Shown here: one piece after another, positions 6,217-21,718 of the stretch | How the letters are laid out: each line of letters begins with the position of its first letter | How positions within the stretch are numbered: position 1 is the first letter of the stretch | Source of the DNA: Myxococcota bacterium | GTDB lineage: Bacteria; Myxococcota; JAJVIH01 | Direction: 5' to 3' | Assembly: GCA_022072125.1 (NCBI GenBank) | Contig: JAJVIH010000018.1 | Coordinates: forward strand, 27,868 to 91,867 | Length of the DNA: 64,000 nt | The notes under the pieces: model-generated | What the model saw: the letters and a program-made list of their open reading frames with translations, nothing else | The model's database searches: none | Told to the model about the DNA's origin: nothing | Position numbers and translations under genes: made by a program

Positions 6217-9200
6217 TTACTTCGTGAACACCCACTTCTGCTTTGAGTTGCGGATGACATCCGTCTCCTCAAAGTAGATTTTGTGGTATTTGTTCAGACG
6301 CCACAGCTTGCGGATCTGGTCATCATAGTGGGGGGCGCCCAGCTTGCCATCCTGCCCGCCGGGAATCGCCATATGGCCTTTCGGACCCTTGTCAGTCAGC
6401 TCCACCACCACGCGGGTGGCTGGTCCGGATGAATAGGTCCAGTTTTTGCTGAACGAAGTGCGCGACACGCCGTAGTTGCAGGCGTCCACGTTGTTGTTGT
6501 CGCCATGGCGCGGGAATCCGTTGGGAAACCCGGCGTCCCCGCCCGGCGGCACCGCCAGGAAGTCGAGACCCGCCAGGTGCTTGAGCGTCAGCGTATGCTT
6601 GGCTCCCCAGCGCCACTGGGTCATGTCCTTCGTACCAAAACCTTCCTTGAAGGCAGGGCCGCTTTCGAGAAAATCGAGCGCCTGCTTCAGGCTCTTCATG
6701 AGGATGAAGTCGCGGCTTTCCACATCGGGCGTGCGCAGGTCGTCGAAATAGATGGAATGGCCATCGGCGCCGGATTTGCTGATGAGTTCGCCTTCCCGGA
6801 ATGTGATGTGGTGCAGGGCCTTGAACACCTGGAAGCTGATCAGATTGCGCCCCATCTTTTCCTGTTCGTCGCCCAGGGTGTTGACCGCGATCCACTGGTA
6901 CCAGGCGTTGAAAATCGAGGTGGCGATGGAATCATCCACTTCTTCCGCCGGAACATCCTTGCCCACGCCAGAAGCCGCCCACAGCCGCCACTTCTTCAGG
7001 TATTCCATGGCCTTGCCGGCGCGCTCGTCGTAGAACTCCGCCAGTTTGGGGTCCATGGTCTTGTCGCCTTCCCTGGCCTTCCTGGCCTTTTCCAGCACCT
7101 CCGTGAGCAGGGGCAGCCAGTCCTTGCCCATGTTGGAGTAATGATCGGCCTGCACCGACATCATGTCCTCGACGGTGATCTTCTTGCCCTGCTTGATGTA
7201 TTCCTCGATGCGATCCTGGATGCGGCCGCCGCGATACCCCTCGGCGTAGAAATATCCGTAGTAGGGCTTGCCGTCTTTCAGGGTTTCGTTCAGCGGATCC
7301 CCATCCAGGGTGTTGCCCACCGGATCGTTGTTGGCGGTCACCACGTAGCCTTTTGCGGGGTTGAGCGCGTGGGGAAGCTGGGTGTCATCAAGGAATTTGC
7401 CGGTCCATTCGTATCCGCCGTCGCCAGGCAGCGGCAGCCAGGGCGGAGTGGCGGGGTCGAGCTTTTCGCGGATGGGCGTCAGCGCGGTTCCCGTCATGAA
7501 GATATCGCCTTTGGTGTCGCCATAGACAAATCCCTGGGCGCCGACGCCGAAGTTGTCGAGGGCGTCCTCGAATTCCTGCTGATTTTTTGAATTGAACGCC
7601 AGCCACATGGCCTTGCTTTCGTTGGTCGGCTGGAAACCGGTCCAGCGCACGCTGAGCGCGGTGGTCTTGTCATCGGAAACCGAGTTGATGGGACCATGGT
7701 GGGGAACCTCCAGGTATTCGATGGTCACCACGCAGTTGGGGCCGTCCTCCCGGGATTTGACGGGGTAGATTTTTTTCGCCCAGCCCGGCACGCGCTTGCC
7801 GGCGGTTTGCTCGCAGGTTTCCTTCTCTTCCTTCTTGAAGCGGAACTCCTCGGGGCGGCGGACGACATCCACCTGCTGTCCCTTGAACAGCACCGATTTC
7901 ACGAAACCATCGGGGCCCATGGCCACCTTCTCCACATAGTAGTCGGTGACATCGGTGAAGAAGGTGGTCACGCTGGAAGCCATGGCGTCGTTATGGCCGA
8001 TCACCACGGCGGCGATGCCGGGGAAGGTCACGCCCGCCGCGTTGTATGTTCCGCCGGCGCGTTTGGTGTTGAGGTGCATTTCCATGAAGATGGCGGGGTT
8101 GTTGAGGCCCAGGTGTGGGTCGCCGGAGACAATCGGCTTGCCGCTGGCGGTGTGCTTGCCGGAGACGACCCAGTTGTTCGAGCCGCGATCCCGTTCCGTG
8201 TACAGCCCGAAGATATTGTAGGGGGATCCGGCGAGGCTCTTGCGGAAGCTGGCGTGGCCTTCCAGCAGGCCGGGGCGGAATCGCGGATTGGGAAAGTGTT
8301 TGCGGAAATGCTCCAGCCGCAGTTCATGGGGCTTTGGCCCCACCTGGGCGCGGGTGTCGCCCTTGGGGTATCCATCCAGAATGGTGGCGGCGCGCGCGGG
8401 TTTGAGGGTCAGCAAATCCGCCGCCGCGCCTTCCCGGGCGTCGCCCTTGGGAAAGGCCTTGCGCGCGGCTTCAATCTGCGCGGCGAAATCCCCTTCATCA
8501 ATATATCCCTCCGACAGGTTGAGCACCTGATAGCGGGCGAAGGCCAGCGAGTCCGCGGGCGTCCACGGCGCCACGTTTTCCGGGCGGATTCCCAGGCCGA
8601 TGAACTCGGGGCCGATCTCCTCCCACTGGGCCTGTTTCAGGAAGGCGTTCACTCCGGCGGCATAGCTGTCCATGTAAAGCTTCAGTTCGTCATCCGCCGG
8701 CAGGGAATCGTAGACCTGCTGGGCGATGCGGCGCAACTTCCAGAAGCGCTGATCCACGTCGGTTCCCAGCGCCCCCGCTCCCTGAAATTCCGTCAGCGTG
8801 CCGGAGGACAGGCGCCGGACGCCCTCCATGGCGAACATGCGCAGGGAGGCCTGCACCCACCCGCCGGCGAACCCCAGATCGGAAAGGTTTTTCGCGTAGA
8901 TATGCGGAATGCCCCAGTCATCCATCACCACGATGACATCGTCCTTGAGGCCCGGCGCCTTCAGGGTCTTGTCCGTGCGCAGTTCCTCGATGTTATTGGC
9001 TTCGCCGGGTCCCTTGCCTGGCGGCGCGGTATCCGGCGCCGGCGCGTCTGCGGGACCTGCTTCCGGCGGTTGAGGACCGGAGTCTGGCGAGGAGGAATCC
9101 GGGGCGGAGTCTCCGGGCGCCGCATCGGCGGGGGCTGTATCCGCGGAAGCGGTGTCTCCCGCGCCATCACCCGGTTTGTCTCCGGTTTTGTCATCGCCGC

Positions 9201-9291
9201 CGCAGGCGGCCGTGGTCAGCGCCAGCATCAATATCCACGGGGCGGCGAACGCAACGCGCGGCCCGGCGAAAACAGGGGAGAGAGCCTTCAT
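6217..9291 (-). CDS. Penicillin amidase / acylase family (Ntn-hydrolase, peptidase S45) lipoprotein, unusually long (1024 aa)
   Basis: Lipobox LALTTAACGG followed by a D/P/A/G-rich linker. Beta-subunit N-terminal nucleophile context GSNNWVVSGKHTASGKPIVSGDPHLG, typical of the penicillin/cephalosporin/AHL acylase family. Confidence 0.75.
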   Translation of the reverse strand: MKALSPVFAGPRVAFAAPWILMLALTTAACGGDDKTGDKPGDGAGDTASADTAPADAAPGDSAPDSSSPDSGPQPPEAGPADAPAPDTAPPGKGPGEANNIEELRTDKTLKAPGLKDDVIVVMDDWGIPHIYAKNLSDLGFAGGWVQASLRMFAMEGVRRLSSGTLTEFQGAGALGTDVDQRFWKLRRIAQQVYDSLPADDELKLYMDSYAAGVNAFLKQAQWEEIGPEFIGLGIRPENVAPWTPADSLAFARYQVLNLSEGYIDEGDFAAQIEAARKAFPKGDAREGAAADLLTLKPARAATILDGYPKGDTRAQVGPKPHELRLEHFRKHFPNPRFRPGLLEGHASFRKSLAGSPYNIFGLYTERDRGSNNWVVSGKHTASGKPIVSGDPHLGLNNPAIFMEMHLNTKRAGGTYNAAGVTFPGIAAVVIGHNDAMASSVTTFFTDVTDYYVEKVAMGPDGFVKSVLFKGQQVDVVRRPEEFRFKKEEKETCEQTAGKRVPGWAKKIYPVKSREDGPNCVVTIEYLEVPHHGPINSVSDDKTTALSVRWTGFQPTNESKAMWLAFNSKNQQEFEDALDNFGVGAQGFVYGDTKGDIFMTGTALTPIREKLDPATPPWLPLPGDGGYEWTGKFLDDTQLPHALNPAKGYVVTANNDPVGNTLDGDPLNETLKDGKPYYGYFYAEGYRGGRIQDRIEEYIKQGKKITVEDMMSVQADHYSNMGKDWLPLLTEVLEKARKAREGDKTMDPKLAEFYDERAGKAMEYLKKWRLWAASGVGKDVPAEEVDDSIATSIFNAWYQWIAVNTLGDEQEKMGRNLISFQVFKALHHITFREGELISKSGADGHSIYFDDLRTPDVESRDFILMKSLKQALDFLESGPAFKEGFGTKDMTQWRWGAKHTLTLKHLAGLDFLAVPPGGDAGFPNGFPRHGDNNNVDACNYGVSRTSFSKNWTYSSGPATRVVVELTDKGPKGHMAIPGGQDGKLGAPHYDDQIRKLWRLNKYHKIYFEETDVIRNSKQKWVFTK

Positions 9292-9505: not shown

Positions 9506-11725
9506 ATGGCTTCCGATACCGGACTCTATACGGTTCTTTGGGAATGCGCGGCGGATGGCTCATCATTCCGGCTGATCGCCGCCTCCGCGGTTTTGAAGCA
9601 ACTGCCCGGATTCCTGACCGCCGCCAAAACCATCGGCGAACTGCACGATGCGCTGCCCCCTCATGAGCGCGCCCTGGCGCTGGACGCCCTGGCGCAACTG
9701 CGCGGAGGCGCGGGGACGGTCTGCCTGCAAATTCACCCCGGAGAGGGCGGGGAGCGGCTCACCCTGGATGTTCAGGCGCGGTTGATGCGGAGTCCGGATG
9801 GCGCGGTGACGGGATATTCCGGTTGCGGCGTGATCCGGCCGGGCGGGGCGCGGGTCCATGAGCCGCCGGCCCGCACCGCCGCCGTGGTTCCCGCAACCGG
9901 AACCCCGTGGAGCAACGCCGATACCGCCGCCTGCGGCGATCTGATCGCACGCCTGCTGGGCGAACAGGGCGCCTATATCTGGTCCTATGATTTCGCCAGC
10001 GGCGTGCTGGATATCGCGCCACACAATTCCATCGTGGCGGGGTACTCCCTGAAAACCCAGGCCACGCAGGATCGCCAGTGGTGGTCGTCGAAAATCCACC
10101 CCGACGATCTGGAAGAGCACTACCGGCTGCTGAGTCATTACATCTACGAGCCGGGCGCCGTCTTCCAGCAGATATTCCGGATTTCCGGAGCGGATGGCGG
10201 GTGGCGGTGGATTCATTCACGCGGGCGGATCATCGAACGCGACGCGCAGGGCGAGCCGGTGCGCAGCGTGGGAATCGGATTGGAATGTCCCCCCACCGGC
10301 GCGTTCGCCAACCAGGGGGCGGGGATACGAAGCATGGTCGATCTCGCGCTCGACGGCGAGAACAACTACCTGTGGATTTCCGACATGAGGGGGGAAACCC
10401 TTTCCTTCGAGCCGCGGAACGCGCCCATCCTCGGATACTCGCCGGAAGAGCATCCCATCTGGCAGCAATGGTTCTGGAACGCGCGCATTCACCCGGAAGA
10501 CCTGATGCTCCTGCCCGGAATTTTCGCAAACGCGGAGGATGGCGAGTGGACGGAGTTTGGCCACCGCGTCATGGATATTCACGGGGTCTGGCGGATGATC
10601 ACGGTGCGCATCCGCGTGCTGGAGCGCGATGAACAGGGGGCGCCCGTCCGCGCCGTGGGAATCTGCCGGGACGACACCGCGCGCTGGCAGGCGGAGGAGG
10701 CGCTCAAAACCGCGGAGTCGGTGCAGCGGCTGGCGCTCAAGGCGAGCAACTATTTTGTCTGGGTTTACAATGTTCCCGCCGATGAGATGCGCATCGTCCC
10801 GGATGATCTGGGCGTGGGCGGCTACACCCCCCGGCTGGACGGGATGAGAACCTTTCACTGGTGGCTGGATCGCATTCATCCGGATGACTCCGGGCGGTTC
10901 GTCACCATATTCCAGGATGTCGTCTCGGGCCGTCTGCGGGAGTTCAAATACGAAGTGCGCCTGCGATCCAAAACCGGAGGATGGATCTGGCTCCAGGCCG
11001 CGGGCGAAGTGCTGGAGCGGGACAAACACGGCCTGCCCATCACCGTGATCGGCGGCGGCGGCGACATCACCGCCATCAAGCAGATGCAGATGCAACTCGC
11101 CGACAGCGAACTGCGCTACCGGAATATCCTTGAAAATGTCTCGGCGGGCGTGGTGGTGGTGGATTCGCATATGCGCATCGTGGAAGCCAATCCGTGGTTC
11201 ACCAAAACCGCTGGCTGGACCGTGCAGGAACTGCTGGGGCGCCGGGTGACCGATTTCATCGCCCCCGAGGAGCGCGGCGAAGCCATGGAGCGCATCCAGG
11301 TGCTTTTGCGGGGAGACCGGGGATTCCGCGGGGTGCGGCGCCGGCAAATCCGCAAGGACGGCTCCATCATCACCACGCGGGTGACCACCACCCCGCTGCG
11401 CCTGCCCAATGGAGAAAACGGCTACGTGGCGCTCATTGACGACCTGCCGGAAGAGAAAAACCAGGAACTGGAGGAGGAACTCGGGCGCATACGCAAGGCG
11501 CTGGAGGCCGTTGCGCGGGATCGGGATCGCCTTGGCAGGCTGATGCACGATTTCGCCAACCTGATGACCCCGGTGACGATGAACAGCGAACTGCTGGCCG
11601 GTCATTCCGTGGTGGCGCAATCGGAACTGAAGCCCATCGCCGATGACCTCGCGCGCGCGGCCGCCCGGGCCTGCGATTTGATTCAACAGTATCTCGGGGA
11701 AAAGGACCGGGAGACCGGCGCGTAA
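9506..11725 (+). CDS. Multi-PAS sensor protein with C-terminal HisKA-like dimerisation/phosphoacceptor domain but no HATPase domain
   Basis: Four PAS/PAC-like modules (e.g. NILENVSAGVVVVDSHMRIVEANPWFTKTAGWTVQELLGRRVTDFIAPEE). H-box GRLMHDFANLMTPVTMNSELL lies near the C-terminus. The ORF stops ~70 aa later without N/G1/G2 ATP-binding boxes. Confidence 0.7.
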   Translation: MASDTGLYTVLWECAADGSSFRLIAASAVLKQLPGFLTAAKTIGELHDALPPHERALALDALAQLRGGAGTVCLQIHPGEGGERLTLDVQARLMRSPDGAVTGYSGCGVIRPGGARVHEPPARTAAVVPATGTPWSNADTAACGDLIARLLGEQGAYIWSYDFASGVLDIAPHNSIVAGYSLKTQATQDRQWWSSKIHPDDLEEHYRLLSHYIYEPGAVFQQIFRISGADGGWRWIHSRGRIIERDAQGEPVRSVGIGLECPPTGAFANQGAGIRSMVDLALDGENNYLWISDMRGETLSFEPRNAPILGYSPEEHPIWQQWFWNARIHPEDLMLLPGIFANAEDGEWTEFGHRVMDIHGVWRMITVRIRVLERDEQGAPVRAVGICRDDTARWQAEEALKTAESVQRLALKASNYFVWVYNVPADEMRIVPDDLGVGGYTPRLDGMRTFHWWLDRIHPDDSGRFVTIFQDVVSGRLREFKYEVRLRSKTGGWIWLQAAGEVLERDKHGLPITVIGGGGDITAIKQMQMQLADSELRYRNILENVSAGVVVVDSHMRIVEANPWFTKTAGWTVQELLGRRVTDFIAPEERGEAMERIQVLLRGDRGFRGVRRRQIRKDGSIITTRVTTTPLRLPNGENGYVALIDDLPEEKNQELEEELGRIRKALEAVARDRDRLGRLMHDFANLMTPVTMNSELLAGHSVVAQSELKPIADDLARAAARACDLIQQYLGEKDRETGA

Positions 11726-11854: not shown

Positions 11855-14800
11855 TTATTCCGGCACGGGGGGAGGCGGAACCGCCGGCGGCGGCGGCGGC
11901 GAACGCGGCGCCGCCGGGGGACGGATCACCAGCCCGCCGTCCACGAATCCCTGAAAGCCCCAGCGCGCCCAGTCAATCACCGAACGCGCCAGCCACAGCG
12001 CCCACAACAGCATGAGGGCGCGGTACAACCAGAGCGGGGCGCTGATCAGCACCGCCGAAGGCAATGCGCTGGCCATGCGATCCTGGTACCAGTTCAGGTG
12101 TGTGTCGTAGGAACCATTGCCCTGGATGTGCATGTCGGGAAATCCCAGCAAGCCCTCCTTGATGGCGAAGAGCAGCACGCCCGCCGCCGCGAAGGTGAGA
12201 CAGCCGATCAGAATCTGGACCAGCGGGTACGCGCCATCCGGAATGCGCGCGGCGAATTTCCGCTTGGCCCCCAGCACGAGAAACCAGCCCGCCAGCACCA
12301 GCGCGCCCGCCGACGCCGACTGGGAAAGCCCCACGCCAAGCAGAAACCAGTGGCGCGCCCGCATGGGAATCCACGGAATCCGCCCCAGCAGGAGGGAGAT
12401 GATCGCCAACACCAGCAGGAAGCTCCAGTACAGGATGGCTGGTCCCAACCGCGGACCGCTCAGCCACAACGGCCAGCGGTTGCGCGGCGTGGCGAAGCCG
12501 ATGCTGCCGTTCACGCTGGGGGTTTCCAGGGAAATGCGCGGGGTTTCGTAGCGGAACGAAATGGCGTTGGGGACTTCCAGCTTCGCCACCACCTCCTGTT
12601 GTCCTGGAGAAACCGGAATGGTCAGCTTCACGCCATCCTGATGCACCGGCAGCACCTTGCCGCTGACGCTCATGGAGAGCGCCCGGGCGCCTTCCGGCAA
12701 GGCGATGATGTGCTGGCCGCCCAGGCTCGCGCGCATGGACAACGTGAGGACCACTTCGGTGACCCGATCCCCCGGCGTGACATTCTGGTGGCTCTTGAGA
12801 ATGGTTAGCGTTTGTCCTGGCACGCCCTCCGGACGGGTGATGGCGAGTTTCACCTTTTCGCCGGGCCAGGGCTGCCACACATACTCGCCGCCCTGGTTGT
12901 TGATGGCCTCGGGAATGCCCTCGGCGCCCACATGCCACACGGGGCCCGCGGAAACGCGCCACACCTCGCTCCAGCCCACATCCCGCGGAGCGATCAGTTC
13001 CATGACTTCCTTGCGCTCCAGCACCGAGGTCCAGGTGACGCTCGACTGCTGCGGCGTCAGGTTGACCCGCACCTTGCGGTCCTGAATCTGCAGGTCCGCC
13101 GTGGTGACCGATTCGCCAGGCAACAGCGGAACCGCCAGCACGGCGGAGACGCTGGAATCGTTGAGGCGCTCCACCGTGGTCTCGACCTGCCATTGCAGGT
13201 CAAGGGATATCTCCCGGGTGACGCGCACGAATGGCGGCACGTCGCTGGACTCCATCGGCGCGGCGGAATCCATTTTCTTTTCCCGCACCCGCTGGAGCTG
13301 GAGTTCGCCATCGGGCCGCCCGTTTTCCCGGATGCCGGCGACGAGCCAGCCCTGCGCCTGCGCGGTGACGCGGGCGGGCGGCAACGGCAGGGGCAATTGC
13401 ACGGCGTCCTTGCCAGGCAGGCGGCCTTCCATCACTACGGCATGGCTGCCCTGGGGGAGCCACAGCAGCAAATGGCCCCGGCCATCGCGCATCATCGCCG
13501 GATTGTGCTCGCCGTTGATCGTCACGCTGTCGGGAGTCCAGTGTCCCGCGCCGCCGGGGAGGGCGATCGCCGCGCCCGCCGCCATGTGAACCCGCAGGTT
13601 CAGACGCAGGCTGTCCGCCTGGGCGTTGAGTTCCATGCTTTCGATGGAGGCGCAGTTGGGGCTGCAGGCCTCCGGCCGCAACAGGCGCTCGCGCAACTGG
13701 TCGAGGGTGGCGGAATCGGGCATCTGCGCGCGGGCGCCGCCGGCGGAGAAGGTGAAAACGATCAACATCGCCGCGGCGGCTGCGCTGACGGCGGGGGCCG
13801 GCGCTGGCGCGGAAGGTCCGGTTTTCCGCGTCAGGGAGCGGGCGAGCGCGATCAACAGTCCCAGCAACAGCGCCAGCCGCGCCCAGCTCAGCAGGGAATT
13901 GAGCCAGGGCGGCGCCAGCCACAACCGGAGCTGTTCGGTTTTCTCCACCGGGCCGTTCCATTGGATGGCGATGCTCTGCCAACTCCAGGCGGGAAGTCCG
14001 GGACCGGTCTGCACATTGGCGTTGGGGTCGTTCTGGTACATGCGGTTCTTCCGCTGCACGCCCTTGTACAGGTTGGAGGAGCGCTGCGGCGCGGCCTTGC
14101 CGCGCCCTCCCATATCGCTCAAATCAGAGCGGAACGAGTTGATGCCGGCGTCCTTGCCGTCAATCATGCCCTGCACCGCATCCTGGGCCGGAGATGGCGG
14201 AGGAGCGGCCGGCGCGGCGTTTTGCTGGAAGTTTTCTTCTTCCATGGGCGCGGCGGCTTTGTCCTGCATGGCCGCCATCCCCCCCAGCGGGACATGAAAA
14301 CTCCAGCCATCGCCATACCCACTGCTGGATCCCAGGGCTGGATACATGGCCTGCCGCCCCTGCCGCACCACGAATGGCAGCGCCAGGGCCAGCAACACCA
14401 GCCAGCAACCGGCGCGCGCCAGGTTGCCCGCCACGCGCAATCCGCCCGCGGGCAGATAGCGGGCCAGCGCCTCGGTGATGATCAGGGCGATCCAGATCCA
14501 TTGCGGAGCGCCTGGCTCCTGAAAGGTCAGCACCAGCACCGCCAGGGCGAGAGCGCCCCTGGCCTTGCCCCAGAGCCTGGTCATGGCGAGCGCGGCGACC
14601 AGCACCAGAAACAGATCGAGCAGGGTCCAGGAGCGCATCCAGGTGCGGGGAACATCATCGGCGCCGCTGATATGCAACGCCGACCACCCTGGCGGCAGGT
14701 GCAGGGTGGCGGACACGCGCTGGAAATCATGATCCCAGCCGGTGGAAGGGATGGCCGAAGTTTCGCCCTCGATGCGGCTTTCCGCCTGTACATTGAAGGA

Positions 14801-16042
14801 GGGATGGCGGATTTCCACCCCCATGCGTCCCTTCTGATCCCGGGTGATGACCTGATCCGCGCCGTTGACGTTGGCGCGTCCCAGCAGCAGGCCCGGCGCG
14901 CCGGAGAGCCGCCACTCGGTGTGCATGCTGCCGGAGATGGCGTCGCGCGCGGTGAAGCCGCCGCCCTCGAAATCCAGCCAGAGTTCGCGGGTCAGGTTGA
15001 ACTGGTTGGGCGCGGGATCGGAATTGCCCCGGCGCAATACGTCCAGGGTCATTTTTTCGCCGGGGGCCAGGCGGTAGGCGGGAAATCCGCGCCACTCCGC
15101 AGGCAGCCGGGTCTGGTTGGCGTCAACCGGCGCCGGACTGGTGATATTGACCACGCGATTTTCGGGAACGGTCTGAAAGGCCCAGATTTCTTCCGGGGCC
15201 CAGTCGCCCTGCCCGGGAGGAAAACTGATGGACCGGGTTTCCGCGCCGTAACGGGTGACGAGGGTGATCGTCCAGGTTCCCGGCCGCACCTGCAGGCGCA
15301 GGCGTCCGTCGGTTTCAATGCGCGCAGGCACGGGCGAGTTCAGGCTGACCGGCACATGAGACTTGTCCACCGGCGGCGCCAGCAATATCTCCCGCGCCTC
15401 GCCGGCGGCCCGCAGTTCGATGCGCGTGGTCACCTGCAGCGGATTGTCGTCAAGCACATGGCGGAAGACATCAATCTCCAGGGTGTTTTCCACCGCGACG
15501 GGGGTCTCCTCGCGGGAGAGCCACAGGAATCCCTCGGGATCGCGGTGTGGAAAGGGAGCGGGTCTGCCGTTGATCTCCAACGCCAGCAATCCCACTGACA
15601 GCGGCGCGAAGAGTTTTTCCGGGGCTCGCTCCCACGCAAAACGCCCGCTGATGACATAAGCGCCGGGCGGCAGCCAGATGACCGGAGTATCGCCGTTGTC
15701 CACCACCGCGCCCTGCGCGCCATTGACCTTCACGTCCAGCGGCCAGTGGTCGCGATCACCAGGCAGGCGCACCGGCGATCGTGCATAAACGGACACCGGA
15801 TATTCAAACACCGCTCCCTTGCCGGAGGTCTTGATCTCCAGCCGGGCCGGCCACACACATTCGCGGACAGCGGCGTCTTCCCCCGGCAATGACGGGCAAC
15901 GCATGGCCTCGTGGCCATCCAGCACCCAGGGAATCCAGCTTTTCAGCGGGTCCGGAACCTGTTCCCGCGGAAGCGGTCCCGCGGCGGCCGTGGCGGCCGA
16001 CAACATCAATACCGCCGCCGCGGCGAATGGTTTTACGGTCAT
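11855..16042 (-). CDS. Very large (1395 aa) membrane protein with internal duplication: two [signal/anchor - ~450 aa extracytoplasmic domain - 4 TM] modules and a Pro-rich C-terminal tail
   Basis: N-terminal signal peptide (AAAAVLMLSAATAAAG). TM cluster at aa ~640-740. Second anchor-like segment (LALLLGLLIALARSL...AMLIVFTFSAGGARAQ) and second TM cluster at aa ~1200-1360. The two soluble halves share motifs (C..C near the start; HW.P..V.VNG ... WLP.G..V..GR). Ends PPPPPAVPPPPVPE. Confidence 0.6.
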   Translation of the reverse strand: MTVKPFAAAAVLMLSAATAAAGPLPREQVPDPLKSWIPWVLDGHEAMRCPSLPGEDAAVRECVWPARLEIKTSGKGAVFEYPVSVYARSPVRLPGDRDHWPLDVKVNGAQGAVVDNGDTPVIWLPPGAYVISGRFAWERAPEKLFAPLSVGLLALEINGRPAPFPHRDPEGFLWLSREETPVAVENTLEIDVFRHVLDDNPLQVTTRIELRAAGEAREILLAPPVDKSHVPVSLNSPVPARIETDGRLRLQVRPGTWTITLVTRYGAETRSISFPPGQGDWAPEEIWAFQTVPENRVVNITSPAPVDANQTRLPAEWRGFPAYRLAPGEKMTLDVLRRGNSDPAPNQFNLTRELWLDFEGGGFTARDAISGSMHTEWRLSGAPGLLLGRANVNGADQVITRDQKGRMGVEIRHPSFNVQAESRIEGETSAIPSTGWDHDFQRVSATLHLPPGWSALHISGADDVPRTWMRSWTLLDLFLVLVAALAMTRLWGKARGALALAVLVLTFQEPGAPQWIWIALIITEALARYLPAGGLRVAGNLARAGCWLVLLALALPFVVRQGRQAMYPALGSSSGYGDGWSFHVPLGGMAAMQDKAAAPMEEENFQQNAAPAAPPPSPAQDAVQGMIDGKDAGINSFRSDLSDMGGRGKAAPQRSSNLYKGVQRKNRMYQNDPNANVQTGPGLPAWSWQSIAIQWNGPVEKTEQLRLWLAPPWLNSLLSWARLALLLGLLIALARSLTRKTGPSAPAPAPAVSAAAAAMLIVFTFSAGGARAQMPDSATLDQLRERLLRPEACSPNCASIESMELNAQADSLRLNLRVHMAAGAAIALPGGAGHWTPDSVTINGEHNPAMMRDGRGHLLLWLPQGSHAVVMEGRLPGKDAVQLPLPLPPARVTAQAQGWLVAGIRENGRPDGELQLQRVREKKMDSAAPMESSDVPPFVRVTREISLDLQWQVETTVERLNDSSVSAVLAVPLLPGESVTTADLQIQDRKVRVNLTPQQSSVTWTSVLERKEVMELIAPRDVGWSEVWRVSAGPVWHVGAEGIPEAINNQGGEYVWQPWPGEKVKLAITRPEGVPGQTLTILKSHQNVTPGDRVTEVVLTLSMRASLGGQHIIALPEGARALSMSVSGKVLPVHQDGVKLTIPVSPGQQEVVAKLEVPNAISFRYETPRISLETPSVNGSIGFATPRNRWPLWLSGPRLGPAILYWSFLLVLAIISLLLGRIPWIPMRARHWFLLGVGLSQSASAGALVLAGWFLVLGAKRKFAARIPDGAYPLVQILIGCLTFAAAGVLLFAIKEGLLGFPDMHIQGNGSYDTHLNWYQDRMASALPSAVLISAPLWLYRALMLLWALWLARSVIDWARWGFQGFVDGGLVIRPPAAPRSPPPPPAVPPPPVPE

Positions 16043-16172: not shown

Positions 16173-16724
16173 ATGGTGTTTCTCCGTCCAGCCGCCGCTC
16201 TCGCGGCCCTGCTTTTGCTTTCCTGTTCATCCGGCGGGGAGACCGGCGCGCGCGACTTTTATTCCGGCATGCCCATTCTCGAAACCCTGGCGGTGCTCAA
16301 CGCCCGTACCGCCGGATTCATCGTGCGCAGCGGACTGGGGCTGACTGCTTCGTCGCCATCGCTGAAACAGGAAGAGTTTGAATGGATCCTCATCCATGTC
16401 CATGAAGAGCGGAACGATGATTCCGGCCTGGAGCGTTACTCGGATCGCCTGACCTTTCACGACGGCGTATTGACGGAATGGCAATGGCGGCGCGGCGCCG
16501 GATCCGATCGGGAGTTTGACCAGATCACCTCCTCCGGCAAGCGCGTGGAGAGGGACGCATTTGTCCTTGTTTACCTGGATGACCGCCGGATCGTGGGATG
16601 GCGCAACCGCGACAACGGGGAGATGTGGCTGCGCGACTATGATCTCATGATCCGCCTGGGCGTGGCCACGGACGAGGACTACCGCGCCTGGGTGGAACGG
16701 GAGATTCTGGCCCATGCGCGCTAG
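16173..16724 (+). CDS. Hypothetical lipoprotein
   Basis: Start moved to the internal ATG (MVFLRPAAALAALLLLSCSSGGE, lipobox LLSC). The longer track ORF (15819) overlaps the 5' end of the divergent giant gene. Confidence 0.5.
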   Translation: MVFLRPAAALAALLLLSCSSGGETGARDFYSGMPILETLAVLNARTAGFIVRSGLGLTASSPSLKQEEFEWILIHVHEERNDDSGLERYSDRLTFHDGVLTEWQWRRGAGSDREFDQITSSGKRVERDAFVLVYLDDRRIVGWRNRDNGEMWLRDYDLMIRLGVATDEDYRAWVEREILAHAR

Positions 16725-17193
16725 GCGGATCCTTGGGTTTCTCCTGTTTCTGCCGTTGATATCCTGCGGCGGCGGCGTGGACGCGATGATGGATGGTTTC
16801 CCGCTGGGCGGCTCCCTGGCCAGTTGCCAGCGGCGTCTGCTGGAATGGCGCTACAACTTCACGCAGGCCAGCCGTGACGCCGGAGAAGGCGGCGAATCCA
16901 TGCGCTGGATCACGGCTGACGGAGGCCCGCGCGGCAAGCCCTCCCGCCTGGGCCTGGTCTTTGAAAACGGGCGCCTGGTGCTGGCGCAGGCGTTTTACCA
17001 CGACCCCGCGCCGGTGCTCGATCGGCTGAAAACGCTGGGAGAACCGGCGTCCGCCTCCAGGGGGGTGCGCCGGTGGAAACCCGGCGGCGATGTGGAAGTG
17101 GAATGGGATGAAGCGCGCGGCCGCCTGATCGTCCACAAATCCCACGTCAACTGGCGTCTGTGGGCCAATCCCTCTGGCGGAACCATGAACTAG
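16714..17193 (+). CDS. Hypothetical lipoprotein
   Basis: MRARRILGFLLFLPLISCGGG lipobox. Overlaps the previous gene's stop by 11 nt, consistent with an operon. Confidence 0.45.
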   Translation: MRARRILGFLLFLPLISCGGGVDAMMDGFPLGGSLASCQRRLLEWRYNFTQASRDAGEGGESMRWITADGGPRGKPSRLGLVFENGRLVLAQAFYHDPAPVLDRLKTLGEPASASRGVRRWKPGGDVEVEWDEARGRLIVHKSHVNWRLWANPSGGTMN

Positions 17194-17308: not shown

Positions 17309-17884
17309 ATGAACAACGGAAAGACTGCGCCATCCATTCCTTCCGCCGCTGGCGGCGAAGGGCGCATCACCCTGCGGGACGCTGTCATGGACGATCTGCC
17401 CCTGCTGCGGCGGTGGGATGAACAACCGCACAACATCGAAGCCGATCCCAACGATGACTGGGGATGGGAAAACGAACTCGGCCGCAAACCTGACTGGCGG
17501 GAACAACTCATCGCCATGGCGGATGGCAGGCCGATCGGATTTATCCAGATCATCGATCCCGCACGTGAGGAAAGCCATTACTGGGGTGATTGTCCGCCCA
17601 ACCTGCGGGCGGTTGACATCTGGATTGGCGAGGCGAACGACCTGGGGCGCGGTTACGGAACACAGATGATGGCGCTGGCCCTCGAACGCTGTTTCGCTCC
17701 GCCTGAAGTGGAGGCCGTGATCATCGATCCGCTGGCCGGCAACACGCGGGCCATCCGTTTTTACCAGCGGTTGGGTTTCCAGTTCACGGAGTTCCGGGAC
17801 TTTGGCCGCGATCATTGCGCAGTCCACCGCCTCACCCGCGCAGCTTGGGAATCCCTGCGCGCCGCGCAAAACCGGAAGGAATGA
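17309..17884 (+). CDS. GNAT family N-acetyltransferase, AAC(6')-Ib-like
   Basis: WIGEANDLGRGYGTQMMALALERCF...IDPLAGNTRAIRFYQRLGFQF. Resembles the acetyl-CoA binding region and C-terminal DPxxxNxRAIRxYEKxGF motif of aminoglycoside 6'-N-acetyltransferases, from memory. Confidence 0.65.
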   Translation: MNNGKTAPSIPSAAGGEGRITLRDAVMDDLPLLRRWDEQPHNIEADPNDDWGWENELGRKPDWREQLIAMADGRPIGFIQIIDPAREESHYWGDCPPNLRAVDIWIGEANDLGRGYGTQMMALALERCFAPPEVEAVIIDPLAGNTRAIRFYQRLGFQFTEFRDFGRDHCAVHRLTRAAWESLRAAQNRKE

Positions 17885-18088
17885 TTTCCGCCCATCGAAT
17901 CCATCAGACGGGCGGAAGGGAGCCGGTAAAATCGTCAGGGGGAAGAGACTCGGCGGTAGCGGCCGCCGCTCCATTCACCCAACTCCCTGTTTCCGCTGGA
18001 TTGACGCAGAGCGTTAATTGCGGTAGAGGGCCGCTCTGCTACACTGGAGCACTTGTATCTCCGGGGCAGGTTGCCGGGAGGGTTTTTC

Positions 18089-21000
18089 ATGATCGTCCGA
18101 ATGAATCGCACTGTTTTCCCCCGGGCCGCGCTGGCGCTTTTCACCAGCGCGCTCGCCTTGTTGACCGCTTGCGGCGAAGACGCCCTGCCCGAGGGCGCCA
18201 TCACCCGAAAACCCGACGCCGCGACTCCCTTCGATTCCAACCCCTTCCTGTGCACCACCAACCTGGAATGCACTCCCGGGCAGGAATGCATCAATGGCCA
18301 GTGTGTGCTGCAGGAAATCCCCCCTCACGACGCCGGTGAAACCGATGCAGGCAAGACCGACGCTGCGCCAGCCGATGGCGGCGGCGGTGATTCCGGCGGC
18401 GCGGAGTCCTGCACGAAACGCGATGATTGCCCGGGCGGCCATATCTGCTTCGGCGGCAAATGCATTCCCGATCCCAACGCCCCCGACAGCGGACCTGGCG
18501 ACTCCGGCGGCGATGCGGGCGACACAGGAGACGCCCAAAGCTCCTCCGATCCGGATATTGACCTGGACCTGACGCCGTCGGGTGGAAAATACGTCATTGA
18601 TTTTGGTCCGGTCGTGGTGGGCGCGCCGGTTTCCCGCACCTTCACGGTGACCAACAAGGGCCTGGGCGAACTGAAAATCCTGTCGCTGGTGATCAGCAAG
18701 GGCATTGCGGCGGGCTTCGCCTTCAAGACCAACCCGGTCGTTCCCAAGAGCATCCAGGCAGGCAATTCGTGGACCTATGAAGTGGTGTTCTCCGCCGCCA
18801 ATGCCGATCCGGCGGAAGGCGCCATCACCCTGGCCAGCAATGACCCGGACGAAGGAACGCTGGAGATACAGCTCACCACCACGGTGAAAGGGAAAGCCAA
18901 GGCGCAGGCCGAGCCCGCCGAACTGGACTTCGGTGAAATCCGCGTGGGCGTGACCGCGGAACGCACGGTCAAAATCAAAAACGCGACCGATGGCGACGCG
19001 GTCCTGCGCATTGACGGCCTGGCGGCCAAATCCGCCGGGGTTTTCGCCTGGGTTCCGGACGCCAGCCGCAAATTCCCGATCTTCCTGAATCCCAATGAAC
19101 AACGCGAGTTCAAGGTATCGTACGCGCCCAAGACCGCGGGCCAGAGCACGGACAGCATCCAGGTCAACACCAACGGCGAACCGGCGGCGCTGGATATCCC
19201 CGTCAAGGGCAACGCGGTTTCCAGCGCGCTGAAGATTGATCCTTCCCCGGTGGACCTGGGCGAAGTGGCTGTCGGTGCGGCGGCGGAGAAGGAAGTCACG
19301 CTGAGCAACGACGGCGCCGCTGAACTGCGGGTGACCGCGCTGGCTATCGCCAAAAGCACGGAGTTCAAGCTGGTGTCGCCGCCCGCGCTGCCGCTCAAGC
19401 TGACCGCGAAGGGAACCAAGGACGCGGAGGCCAGGCTGCGCATCAGCTTCACGCCCGCCAAAGCCGGCTCGTTCGAGGCGGAGTTACGCATCGAAAACGA
19501 CGGCCCCACCTCGCCCAACACCGTCAAGGTGATCGGCAAGGCCATCAGCCCGCCGAAGATGGAACTGTCGAGCAACGCCCTGCAGTTCGGCAACGTGGCC
19601 ATCGGAAGCAAGAAACTGGTGGAATTCCGGGTGTCCAACAAGGGCGGCAGCCCGCTGGAGGTTGCTTCCGTCAAGGGCAAGGTCAACGCGGCCGACCAGC
19701 CCTTCTCGTGGACGCCGCGCGGACCGTTCACCGTCGCACCCGCCGCGTCCGTGACCATTCAGGCCGCGTTTGAGCCGAAATCGAAGGGCGCGGTGACGGA
19801 AATCCTGGAGTTCGAGGCCAACGACCCGCAGTCGGCCAGTCTCACGGTCACCATGATCGGCGCGGGCGCCGAGCCGGATATCCGCGTATCGCCGTCGAGC
19901 GTGGACCTGGTGAGCGGCGTGGGTTCCAGCAAGACCGGCGAGATCACCATCCGCAATGTGGGCGACGCCCCCTTGACCATCCGCTCGGTGAAACTGACCG
20001 GAGCCGACTGCGCCGAGTTCAGCTTCGCCGAGAAGCCCACCGACGGCAGCGTGCTGGCGGCGGGCGCCTCGTTCTCCGTCAAGGTGACCTACCGGCCCAC
20101 GAACACCCAGGACGATTCCTGCAACGTGGATATCGAAAGCAACGACACGGACGCCTCCACGGTCCGGGTGGCGCTCTCCGGCAAGGGGGCGGCCCCGGAA
20201 ATCGAGGTGAAACCGGCGGAGTTGAAATTCGGCAATGTCAATGTGGGAACCACCAGCGCGCCGCAGGACATCACCATCAACAACCTGGGCAACGCCACGC
20301 TGAGCCTGCAAACGGTCACCACCACGGGAAGTTGCGCCAACTTCACCCGCACCAGCCCGGGAACCAGCGTGAACGCGGGGGCCAGCGCGAAAATCACGGT
20401 GACCTACAAGCCCGTCTCGGCGATTACCGAGACATGCTTCCTCAATATCCGCAGCAACGACGCCGACGAACCGCAGGTGATTGTCCAGGTCAATGGCGCG
20501 GGCGTCACTTCCGGCGTCAACGTCAATCCGGCGAGCATTGATTTCGGCACCGTGCCGCTGACCACCACGCGGGAGATCGCGTTTGAAATCCAGAACACCG
20601 GCGGAGCCACGCTGACGGTCAGTTCCATCACCAGTTCCTGCACGGAAGTGACAGTGGCCGAGCCGCCCACGGCTCCCATTCCGCCAGCGGGCAAACACTC
20701 CTCCAAGGCCGTATTTGATCCGGCGGGCAAGGCCGTGGACCTGACCGCCAAGGCCTGCAAACTGACCATCAACAACGACTCCGCGGTCAGCAAGAAAGAT
20801 GTGCCCGTGCGCGGGCGCTCCAGCGACAACAAGCCGGAGGCGCGCATCCAGGTGGGAACCACCCTGCTGGATCCGAATTTCGTATACATCGTGCCGTTCA
20901 ACGACACGCTGAAGATTGACGGGTCGAGAAGCATCGCCCAGGGCGGGGCCTCCATCGCATCCTACGCCTGGAAAATCCTCGAACAACCGGCGGGCGGGAC

Positions 21001-21718
21001 CAAAACCCCTGGAACCGGCGCAAGCTGGGACCTGAAATTCGATCTGTACGGAACGTACCGCGTCGAACTGGTGGTCACCGACAGCAACGGGCAGGCCAGC
21101 GCGCCCACGGTGGTCTCTTTCTTTGTGCAGTCCACGGTGCTGCTGGACCTGACCTACGAAAACATCGCCTCCAACGACGCCGACAAGCGGGATGTGCAAA
21201 TGGCCTTCTACCATCCTGGCATCGCCGGCAACGCCAGCAGCAGCAGCCGCTGCCATTACGGCAACCAGAAGCCCAACTGGGGCGACTACGGCTGGTCGCA
21301 GGGAACAACCACCTGGCCGTTCTACGCCATTCCCGCCAACGGAGCGGAGCGGATTGAATATAAATCCGTTCCGGCCAGCGGGGCCCAGACCTTCAAGATC
21401 CGTTCGCGGTACATGGAAGACTGCAAGGACTACTACGAAAGCGTGATCTTTGGCCCCACCTGCTTTGATCATGAGCCGTCGAAAACCACCACGGTCATCA
21501 AGATCAACGGGGTGGAAAAGGGCGTGTGCTGCCGGAAGTTTGATCAACTCACCGGCGACGACAATCTTGATCTCGCTCCCGCGGGTCCGTATGTGGATAT
21601 CGCGGACGTTGTGATCGAAAATGGCGTATTCAAATCGGTGACCTGCGCGGCCGGTTCCGTGCAGTTCGCCACCACCACCGCGGCGAAAAACTCTGGAAAT
21701 GCTGCCTGCAAATTCTAA
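18089..21718 (+). CDS. Large surface lipoprotein: Cys-rich 'myxo-type' disulfide repeats + ~10 tandem Ig-like (choice-of-anchor D / ASH-like) domains + PKD-like domain + Cys-containing C-terminal domain
   Basis: Start chosen at the ATG with a GGGAGGG RBS 6 nt upstream. Lipobox ALLTACGE. Two CX5CX5CX4C modules ([38 protein letters not shown]). Repeated ~100-aa units share the pattern L.F G.V.VG......T.TNKG...L.I.S. PKD-like segment [12 protein letters not shown]...[12 protein letters not shown]. Confidence 0.7.

Follow-up and report, generated by a model that had tools for sequence, protein, structure and literature searches.

An undescribed family of large bacterial envelope proteins with two homologous beta-sandwich arms, represented by a 1,395-residue protein of a Myxococcota bacterium

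The reverse-strand gene at positions 11855..16042 of the window analysed here (the whole 64-kb stretch of Myxococcota DNA) encodes a polytopic inner-membrane protein of 1,395 residues that founds an undescribed family of diderm bacteria; the folds themselves, beta-sandwiches and helix bundles, are ordinary. The protein is organised as two consecutive modules, A and B, each of which combines a large arm of three all-beta blocks with a bundle of membrane helices, and the two arms are homologous to each other. As to function, we tentatively favour a non-enzymatic, periplasm-facing scaffold or binding platform, a reading that is put forward as one package with the architecture, topology and processing described below.

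The gene is genuine. The open reading frame (ORF) is complete, with an ATG start, 1395 amino acids and a stop codon, and its translation is identical to the Myxococcota protein GMKNLPBB_01064 from a metagenome-assembled genome at NCBI. Because the DNA is of high GC content (63-67% in the genome and 65-67% in this region) and contains many long spurious or shadow ORFs, the reading frame by itself would be little proof. The idea that it is such a high-GC artefact, or that the similarity of its halves is due to chance or composition, can however be given practically no weight. It was already refuted by more than 1000 full-length homologues from several phyla, by confident AlphaFold2 (AF2) models (predicted local distance difference test, pLDDT, 85 and 83) and by the profile comparison of the two halves with hhalign (E 3e-13).

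A protein search returned 1091 relatives, with alignments that span 95-99% of the length at 40-44% identity. Full-length relatives at 36-44% identity were found in at least 568 species representatives by a degenerate-pattern scan of one genome per species, and a phmmer search with half B against 1.84 billion representatives gave 1417 proteins (clusters at 50% identity) at E<=1e-30. All of the best 80 matches (80/80) cover at least query residues 34-1297, and nearly all extend to about 1344-1395. The carriers among these 80 are Myxococcota, many Methylococcales, Desulfobacterota, Nitrospirota, Acidobacteriota, Thiotrichales, Mariprofundaceae and Burkholderiales; Aeromonadaceae likewise carry the family. 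Cultured carriers include Zobellella maritima, Oceanimonas sp., Methylomonas sp. TEB, Methylotetracoccus oryzae and Azoarcus sp. KH32C. The relatives are all annotated as "hypothetical", as is the Azoarcus sp. KH32C copy in RefSeq. Mean pairwise identity is even throughout the arms and bundles (0.50-0.66) and peaks in the last loop and helix (0.66 in the C-terminal helix); it is 0.30 in the tail and 0.18 in the linker at residues 567-669.

None of the family searches placed the protein. Pfam gave no hit for it at E<=1, and when 34 members were searched to E<=10 none reached the thresholds; the weak matches included the heparinase II/III C-terminal domain in three of the 34 (E 0.035). No match was obtained in NCBIfam, in PADLOC (any anti-phage defence model) or in sequence and profile searches of the PDB. 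A motif scan of the protein found no HExxH, CxxC, Walker or other nucleotide-binding motif, and neither Pfam nor NCBIfam detected a kinase, GGDEF, HAMP, anti-sigma or other output domain. Since the tests for membership of described families by sequence, catalytic motif and neighbouring genes all failed, we regard the protein as new at family level. An earlier reading of the DNA alone (the initial annotation) had likewise been unable to assign it to any known family.

The same annotation described a fused tandem-duplicate envelope protein, and this was borne out. A BLASTP comparison of the halves yielded one short match (residues 56-135 vs 791-875, 26% identity, E about 1e-4). Comparison by hhalign of half-profiles built from 114 family members aligned residues 56-506 with 791-1240 over 418 columns (97.9% probability, E 3.4e-13), so that the halves are significantly similar. 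When the domains were compared one by one, most of the signal was found in the first beta-sandwich (Ad1 with Bd1, E 9e-13); the second and third sandwiches are weakly similar singly (E about 1e-3) and collinear in the full comparison. The first sandwich of arm B also resembles the third (Bd1 with Bd3, E 2e-6), a likeness that hints at an older repeat within the arm. For helix bundles A and B, the profile comparison gave no significant similarity (E 0.034). As the arm profiles match and the bundle profiles do not, the periplasmic arms are duplicated and the bundles are parallel in architecture only; the earlier claim of two homologous halves therefore stands for the arms and is not supported for the bundles. 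Sequences shared between the halves include DHWPLDVKVNG (98-108) vs GHWTPDSVTING (833-844), a second motif pair, IWLPPGAYVISGR vs LWLPQGSHAVVMEGR, and the matching stretches WLPPGAYVISGR vs WLPQGSHAVVMEGR. Each arm opens with an invariant Cys pair, C49/C62 in A and C793/C797 in B. The Cys pairs, the shared motifs and the C-terminal PPPPPAVPPPPVPE had been pointed out before, and all of them are present in the translation or the motif scan. No paralogue of the protein is encoded within the window.

AF2 models were obtained for residues 1-570 (pLDDT 85) and 670-1395 (pLDDT 83) from 54-sequence alignments. In both, three all-beta blocks of about 120 residues each are followed by a helical bundle (Table 1). 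The N-terminal signal peptide has a likely cleavage site at A19-x-A21, followed by x-P23 (A21 in 95/114 and P23 in 109/114 sequences). Arm A comprises a helix (31-40), the Cys pair and beta blocks 63-174, 187-302 and 322-448, and is closed by a conserved LPPGW. Its homologue, arm B, has the same order of elements: helix 777-787, C793-x3-C797, and beta blocks 798-918, 939-1069 and 1079-1195. Bundle A has D476 (D/E in 112/114) and E509 (113/114) at its periplasmic rim. In bundle B, helices 1205-1220, 1229-1239, 1244-1266 and 1272-1299 are followed by the conserved loop GLLGxP(E/D)MQIxGNGS, a beta-hairpin (1315-1336) and a last helix (1337-1367). Four membrane helices per half had been proposed; AF2 gives this number for bundle A, and for bundle B it gives five helices and the hairpin. 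The two-module plan proposed with it is also present, with the addition of a helix at 713-738 between the modules that had not been described. The conserved motif preceding this helix is invariant at T679, G680, P681, G682, W686 and W688. In the half-B model it has a pLDDT of 35-42 and no confident fold; it may dock on arm A, which that model did not contain.

Table 1. Positions of the gene and of the segments of its product in the window.
Feature	Residues	Positions	Strand	Basis or remark
Coding sequence, 1395 aa	1-1395	11855..16042	-	Convergent PAS gene on one side, divergent lipoprotein gene on the other
N-terminal Sec-type signal peptide	1-21	15980..16042	-	Hydrophobic 3-25; AF2 helix 6-20
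Periplasmic arm A	22-467	14642..15979	-	AF2 pLDDT 85; Foldseek 6ezn_A, E 5e-6; invariant columns
Helix bundle A	468-566	14345..14641	-	AF2 helices 474-491, 493-506, 514-529, 534-566
Variable low-complexity charged linker	567-669	14036..14344	-	Identity 0.18, mostly gapped columns
Conserved motif YDPxAxVQTGPGLPxWxW...GPV	670-712	13907..14035	-	Alignment columns
Stop-transfer helix, outside to inside, then K/R-rich loop	713-738	13829..13906	-	Hydropathy; AF2 helix 712-739
Internal signal-peptide-like segment	739-772	13727..13828	-	Alignment columns; AF2 helix 750-766
Periplasmic arm B	773-1196	12455..13726	-	hhalign; AF2 pLDDT 83; Foldseek 8pn9_E, 6ezn_A, E 3e-9
Helix bundle B	1197-1367	11942..12454	-	Most conserved part; AF2, alignment
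Disordered basic proline-rich tail, end PPPPPAVPPPPVPE	1368-1395	11858..11941	-	Composition kept, sequence and length not

The topology was derived from K+R vs D+E counts of the loops in the 114 sequences. These counts place loops 489-496 and 528-539 in the cytoplasm and the EPGAP loop 506-515 outside. The linker at 567-669 and the motif at 670-712 fall outside, and the loop at 736-750 (K+R 2.85 vs D+E 0.39) falls inside. By this positive-inside count the linker is probably periplasmic; with linker and motif outside and the loop inside, helix 713-738 would act as a stop-transfer helix and segment 750-770 would re-export the chain. A periplasmic location of the arms is supported by the N-terminal signal peptide and the loop charge counts, and the invariant Cys pairs fit it. 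For bundle B, a count of five helices fits the charges best, which would leave the GLLGxP loop and the hairpin outside and the tail inside; this part of the modelled topology is less certain. The C-terminal tail is probably cytoplasmic.

The segment at residues 739-772 has the features of a Sec signal peptide with a signal peptidase I (SPase I) site, namely n-, h- and c-regions and small residues at -3 and -1. Its n-region is net-positive in 110/112 sequences, an uncharged 12-mer forms the h-region in 112/112, and the c-region contains P or G in 103/112; the sequence of the h-region itself is poorly conserved. The segment ends in A770-x-A772, followed by E/D773-x-P775 (A770 in 84/114, A772 in 104/114, E/D773 in 94/114 and P775 in 112/114), and the N-terminal site, A19-x-A21 followed by x-P23, matches this ending. 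With the offset from P775 fixed, the (-3,-1) rule holds for only 66/112 and 56/82 sequences, as the distance to P775 is variable. Among the genome copies at 82 loci, the A-x-A, E/D-x-P ending was seen in Methylococcales, Desulfobacterota, Nitrospirota, Aeromonadaceae, Mariprofundaceae and Burkholderiales.

Such a layout is what a duplicated unit of signal peptide, arm and bundle would look like. The retention of the AxA-E/D cleavage motif across phyla suggests two-chain processing, in which SPase I may cut the precursor at the internal AxA site. Split genes were considered as support for two subunits and rejected, as the "module-B-only" entries (P0233/L085 and P0208/L086) are truncated genes. 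These and similar entries of 730-1060 aa begin at the GPGLPxW motif and come from 2.5-kb contigs in which the reading frame runs off the end. Truncated gene calls of this kind also inflate the tally of "short" family members.

Foldseek searches of the PDB with each half independently returned chains of Ost1/ribophorin I as the best match (6ezn_A, 6c26_1 and 8pn9_E), with E 3e-9 for half B and 5e-6 for half A over about 365-520 aligned columns. We take these chains to be Ost1/RPN1 of the yeast and human oligosaccharyltransferase (OST). Further matches were to integrin (alpha) legs, to PIG-T of the glycosylphosphatidylinositol (GPI) transamidase and to the N-domains of M1 aminopeptidases. One sandwich superposes on the M1 N-terminal sandwich over about 150 columns (root-mean-square deviation, rmsd, 3-5 A; 18-19% identity). 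For the modelled halves, the resemblance to Ost1 is one of fold only and consists in tandem beta-sandwiches with a membrane root.

The scaffold reading is based on the following observations. The protein has no catalytic or nucleotide-binding motif and matches no enzyme family, its gene stands alone, and the AF2 models show no cytoplasmic domain capable of signalling or of energising transport. In the proposed arrangement, the N-terminal signal peptide would export arm A, and bundle A would make an even number of membrane crossings. Next would come a disordered periplasmic linker and the conserved GPGLPxWxW motif, the stop-transfer helix would bring the chain back to the cytoplasm, and the internal signal-peptide-like segment would export arm B, before the five-helix bundle B leaves the basic proline-rich tail in the cytoplasm. 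The SPase I cut would give two chains that stay together as a pseudo-heterodimer. On the outer face of the cytoplasmic membrane, the two arms would keep an envelope macromolecule in place or orient it; candidates are peptidoglycan, a nascent protein in the course of export, and a glycan or lipid-linked intermediate. Conserved acidic and polar motifs, found in both bundles at the periplasmic rim, might provide a membrane-proximal contact, and the whole would work like the non-catalytic luminal subunits of OST or of the GPI transamidase.

Several points weigh against this proposal. The suggested function is drawn only from the architecture and a fold-level resemblance, and the multi-domain Foldseek TM-scores are low (0.14-0.25) with an rmsd of 15-24 A; the Ost1 likeness may for this reason be just that of generic tandem beta-sandwiches. 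The topology of bundle B is ambiguous by charge counts alone, and the internal AxA motif could be a frozen relic of an ancestral single-module protein. Moreover, the bundles are conserved as much as the arms or more (0.66 in the C-terminal helix), and they contain the conserved polar residues D476, E509, Q1241, R1260, Q1276, N1309, D1321 and R1341. Such conservation and polarity exceed the needs of a passive anchor and would be in keeping with a transporter or a membrane enzyme as well.

A transporter or exporter is an unlikely alternative, albeit one to be taken seriously. Here the substrate, be it a lipid, a lipid-linked glycan, a polymer or an ion, would be received or guided by the arms and would pass along the 10-11 helices of the two bundles. 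The high conservation of the bundles, the polar and charged residues at the periplasmic rim and the two-fold pseudo-repeat layout, which echoes RND/SecDF and fused FtsX-type permeases, are consistent with this, as are ATP-binding cassette (ABC) ATPase genes within 10 kb of a homologue in 12/82 loci. Their distance is variable, however, and the nearby ATPases are generic, the one in Zobellella being an importer ATPase of the Opp/Dpp/GsiA type; an ABC-transporter partnership was therefore rejected. A conserved adjacent cognate ABC ATPase, as in FtsX-type systems, is absent, with ATPase genes in the vicinity of only those 12 loci. No transporter family was matched in Pfam, NCBIfam or the PDB, and no transporter appears among the top 50 Foldseek PDB matches listed for either half. 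Charged residues buried in mid-membrane are few, and the two bundles are dissimilar.

We regard it as improbable that the protein is an enzyme, or an enzyme-like processing factor, that is anchored in the membrane and works in the periplasm on glycans or peptides, with an active site made of conserved Asp, Glu, Arg and His of the arms and bundle rims. The fit of one sandwich to the substrate-binding N-domain of M1 enzymes, the weak heparinase II/III matches and the many invariant Arg, Asp, Glu and Trp residues would accord with it. The M1 and GH31 domains matched are, however, the non-catalytic beta-sandwiches of those enzymes. No catalytic domain was recognised, the Pfam thresholds were reached by no hit, and the HExxH, CxxC and nucleotide-binding motifs are missing from the protein.

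The initial annotation had also considered a sensor. There is only a very slight chance that the protein is a receptor that relays a signal from the periplasm to the cytoplasm by way of its proline-rich tail. The large ectodomains are of a ligand-binding type, the tail is probably cytoplasmic, and PAS-domain genes are found next to the gene in the window and near the Azoarcus copy. Against this, no output domain of the kinds listed above was detected, the cytoplasmic parts are short loops and a short, disordered and unconserved tail, and the PAS and other regulator neighbours are not conserved.

Indeed, no gene family was found to be conserved beside the homologues. All-against-all clustering of all ORFs at the 82 loci returned only shadow ORFs, generic regulators and ABC ATPases at variable positions. 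A Pfam census of the 132 immediate neighbours, in which 183 Pfam families were matched and the 25 most frequent were viewed, gave no family in more than 4 loci. The called genes around five homologues are unrelated among themselves.

In the window, the large gene is probably monocistronic, because the PAS-only gene on one side is convergent with it and the lipoprotein genes on the other side are divergent. No Rfam match and no promoter-like site were found at the locus, and the only terminator-like sites there are weak. The two lipoprotein genes, at 16173-16721 (+) and 16714-17193 (+), overlap by 8 nt and encode lipoboxes LLLSC and LISC; neither product has a match in Pfam, NCBIfam or PADLOC. 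The divergent pair noted earlier thus exists, and its lipoboxes are real. A functional link to the large gene was dropped, as the lipoproteins do not occur beside homologues in the 82 loci; since no neighbour is kept across these loci, the adjacency is incidental.

The convergent gene at 9506-11725 (+) encodes a 739-aa protein with at least four PAS_3/PAS units up to about residue 650, for which Pfam and NCBIfam gave no kinase, GGDEF/EAL or DNA-binding output domain. At 18053-21718 (+), a protein of 1221 aa contains at least seven HYDIN/ASH/DUF1573-type Ig-like repeats and PKD-like domains, with a weak N-terminal match to a Dickkopf-like Cys-rich domain; this large protein is probably secreted or located at the cell surface. 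A penicillin-amidase family protein of 1024 aa at 6217-9291 (-) (PF01804, E 1e-158) and a GNAT acetyltransferase at 17309-17884 (+) are ordinary neighbours.

Some family members call for comment. A full-length homologue lies on a 5.5-kb contig binned as "Promethearchaeota archaeon" (L065, JAIWHJ010000146.1, coverage 0.33). As every other carrier is a diderm bacterium, this is probably a mis-binned bacterial contig and not an archaeal copy. The source of one homologue (P0039) calls it a "YkgJ family cysteine cluster protein". This is perhaps a mislabel, since the domain is missing from the family, while CxxCxxCC (YkgJ) genes adjoin homologues at two loci. The thrombospondin repeats of another entry (P0009) are in an N-terminal extension that is probably a fused gene call, and they were set aside as uninformative. 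The copy of Azoarcus sp. KH32C, WP_015452075.1 (L087, 8926-13020), is encoded on the 738-kb megaplasmid pAZKH. Its gene overlaps by 4 nt with a downstream isoaspartyl peptidase/L-asparaginase gene, and a gene for an FKBP-type isomerase lies divergently upstream; its neighbour families are all outside the 25 most common of the census.

A protein of the envelope with some 1,400 residues that has been kept along its entire length in hundreds of Gram-negative species must have an important role. Its carriers include methanotrophs, sulfate reducers, myxobacteria, Nitrospirota and Acidobacteriota, and it has had no name and no Pfam or NCBIfam model. A definition of the family, of its domain map and of the probable internal SPase site would remove a large "hypothetical" from many environmental genomes, and would provide an example of a bacterial membrane polyprotein that is open to direct testing. 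Were the likeness to Ost1/ribophorin due to shared ancestry, it would inform how the accessory subunits of eukaryotic N-glycosylation and of the translocon arose; a new transporter architecture, if that were the true reading, would be of general interest.

Among known systems, a parallel to the putative processing is offered by the cytochrome b/c1 precursor FbcH of Bradyrhizobium japonicum, in which, as Thony-Meyer and Hennecke reportedly described around 1989-1991, the second moiety depends for its export on an internal signal peptide, which is cleaved. Our literature search for internal signal-peptide precedents found nothing relevant. The two cases share the idea of a bacterial membrane polyprotein with an internal signal peptide before its second moiety. 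The proteins are unrelated, and cleavage of the large protein is suggested by the conserved AxA-E/D motif alone.

In RND/SecDF proteins and fused FtsX-type (YbbP-like) permeases, an anchor, a large periplasmic domain and a helix bundle occur twice per chain, with 10-12 helices in all. The large protein has the same pseudo-repeat layout. Unlike theirs, which are alpha/beta, its periplasmic domains are beta-sandwiches, and it has no conserved ATPase or proton-relay signature. No match to RND, SecD/F, FtsX or MFS proteins was found in sequence (Pfam, NCBIfam or PDB) or among the Foldseek matches listed. With the M1 aminopeptidases (PepN, ERAP and IRAP; PF17900) it has one superposable beta-sandwich in common, and the M1 enzymes listed match through about 150-280 of their roughly 800-900 residues. 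It differs from them (PF17900 plus PF01433) in having no thermolysin-like catalytic domain, no HExxH...E and no Pfam match.

The closest comparison is with Ost1. By sequence none of the 34 members searched qualifies as a ribophorin, as PF04597 (Ribophorin I) gave no hit at E<=10 in any of them. A search of the literature on bacterial ribophorin-like proteins found nothing relevant. No gene of the STT3/PglB/AglB type occurs among the neighbours in the window or in the 25 most frequent families of the census. There is a slim chance that the protein is a very divergent bacterial relative of ribophorin I/Ost1, a polyprotein cut by SPase at the internal AxA site into two subunits that would serve as a periplasmic holder for nascent exported or glycan-bearing substrates beside Sec/YidC. 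Each arm has three sandwiches vs two in Ost1, the bundles are polytopic where Ost1 has one transmembrane helix, and the protein is bacterial and duplicated in one chain. OST1 is a non-catalytic subunit of OST (PMC10859629), and the large protein is similarly without a recognisable catalytic domain. Its predicted order of parts, a signal peptide and tandem beta-sandwiches on the non-cytoplasmic side, with membrane helices after them, would also be that of Ost1.

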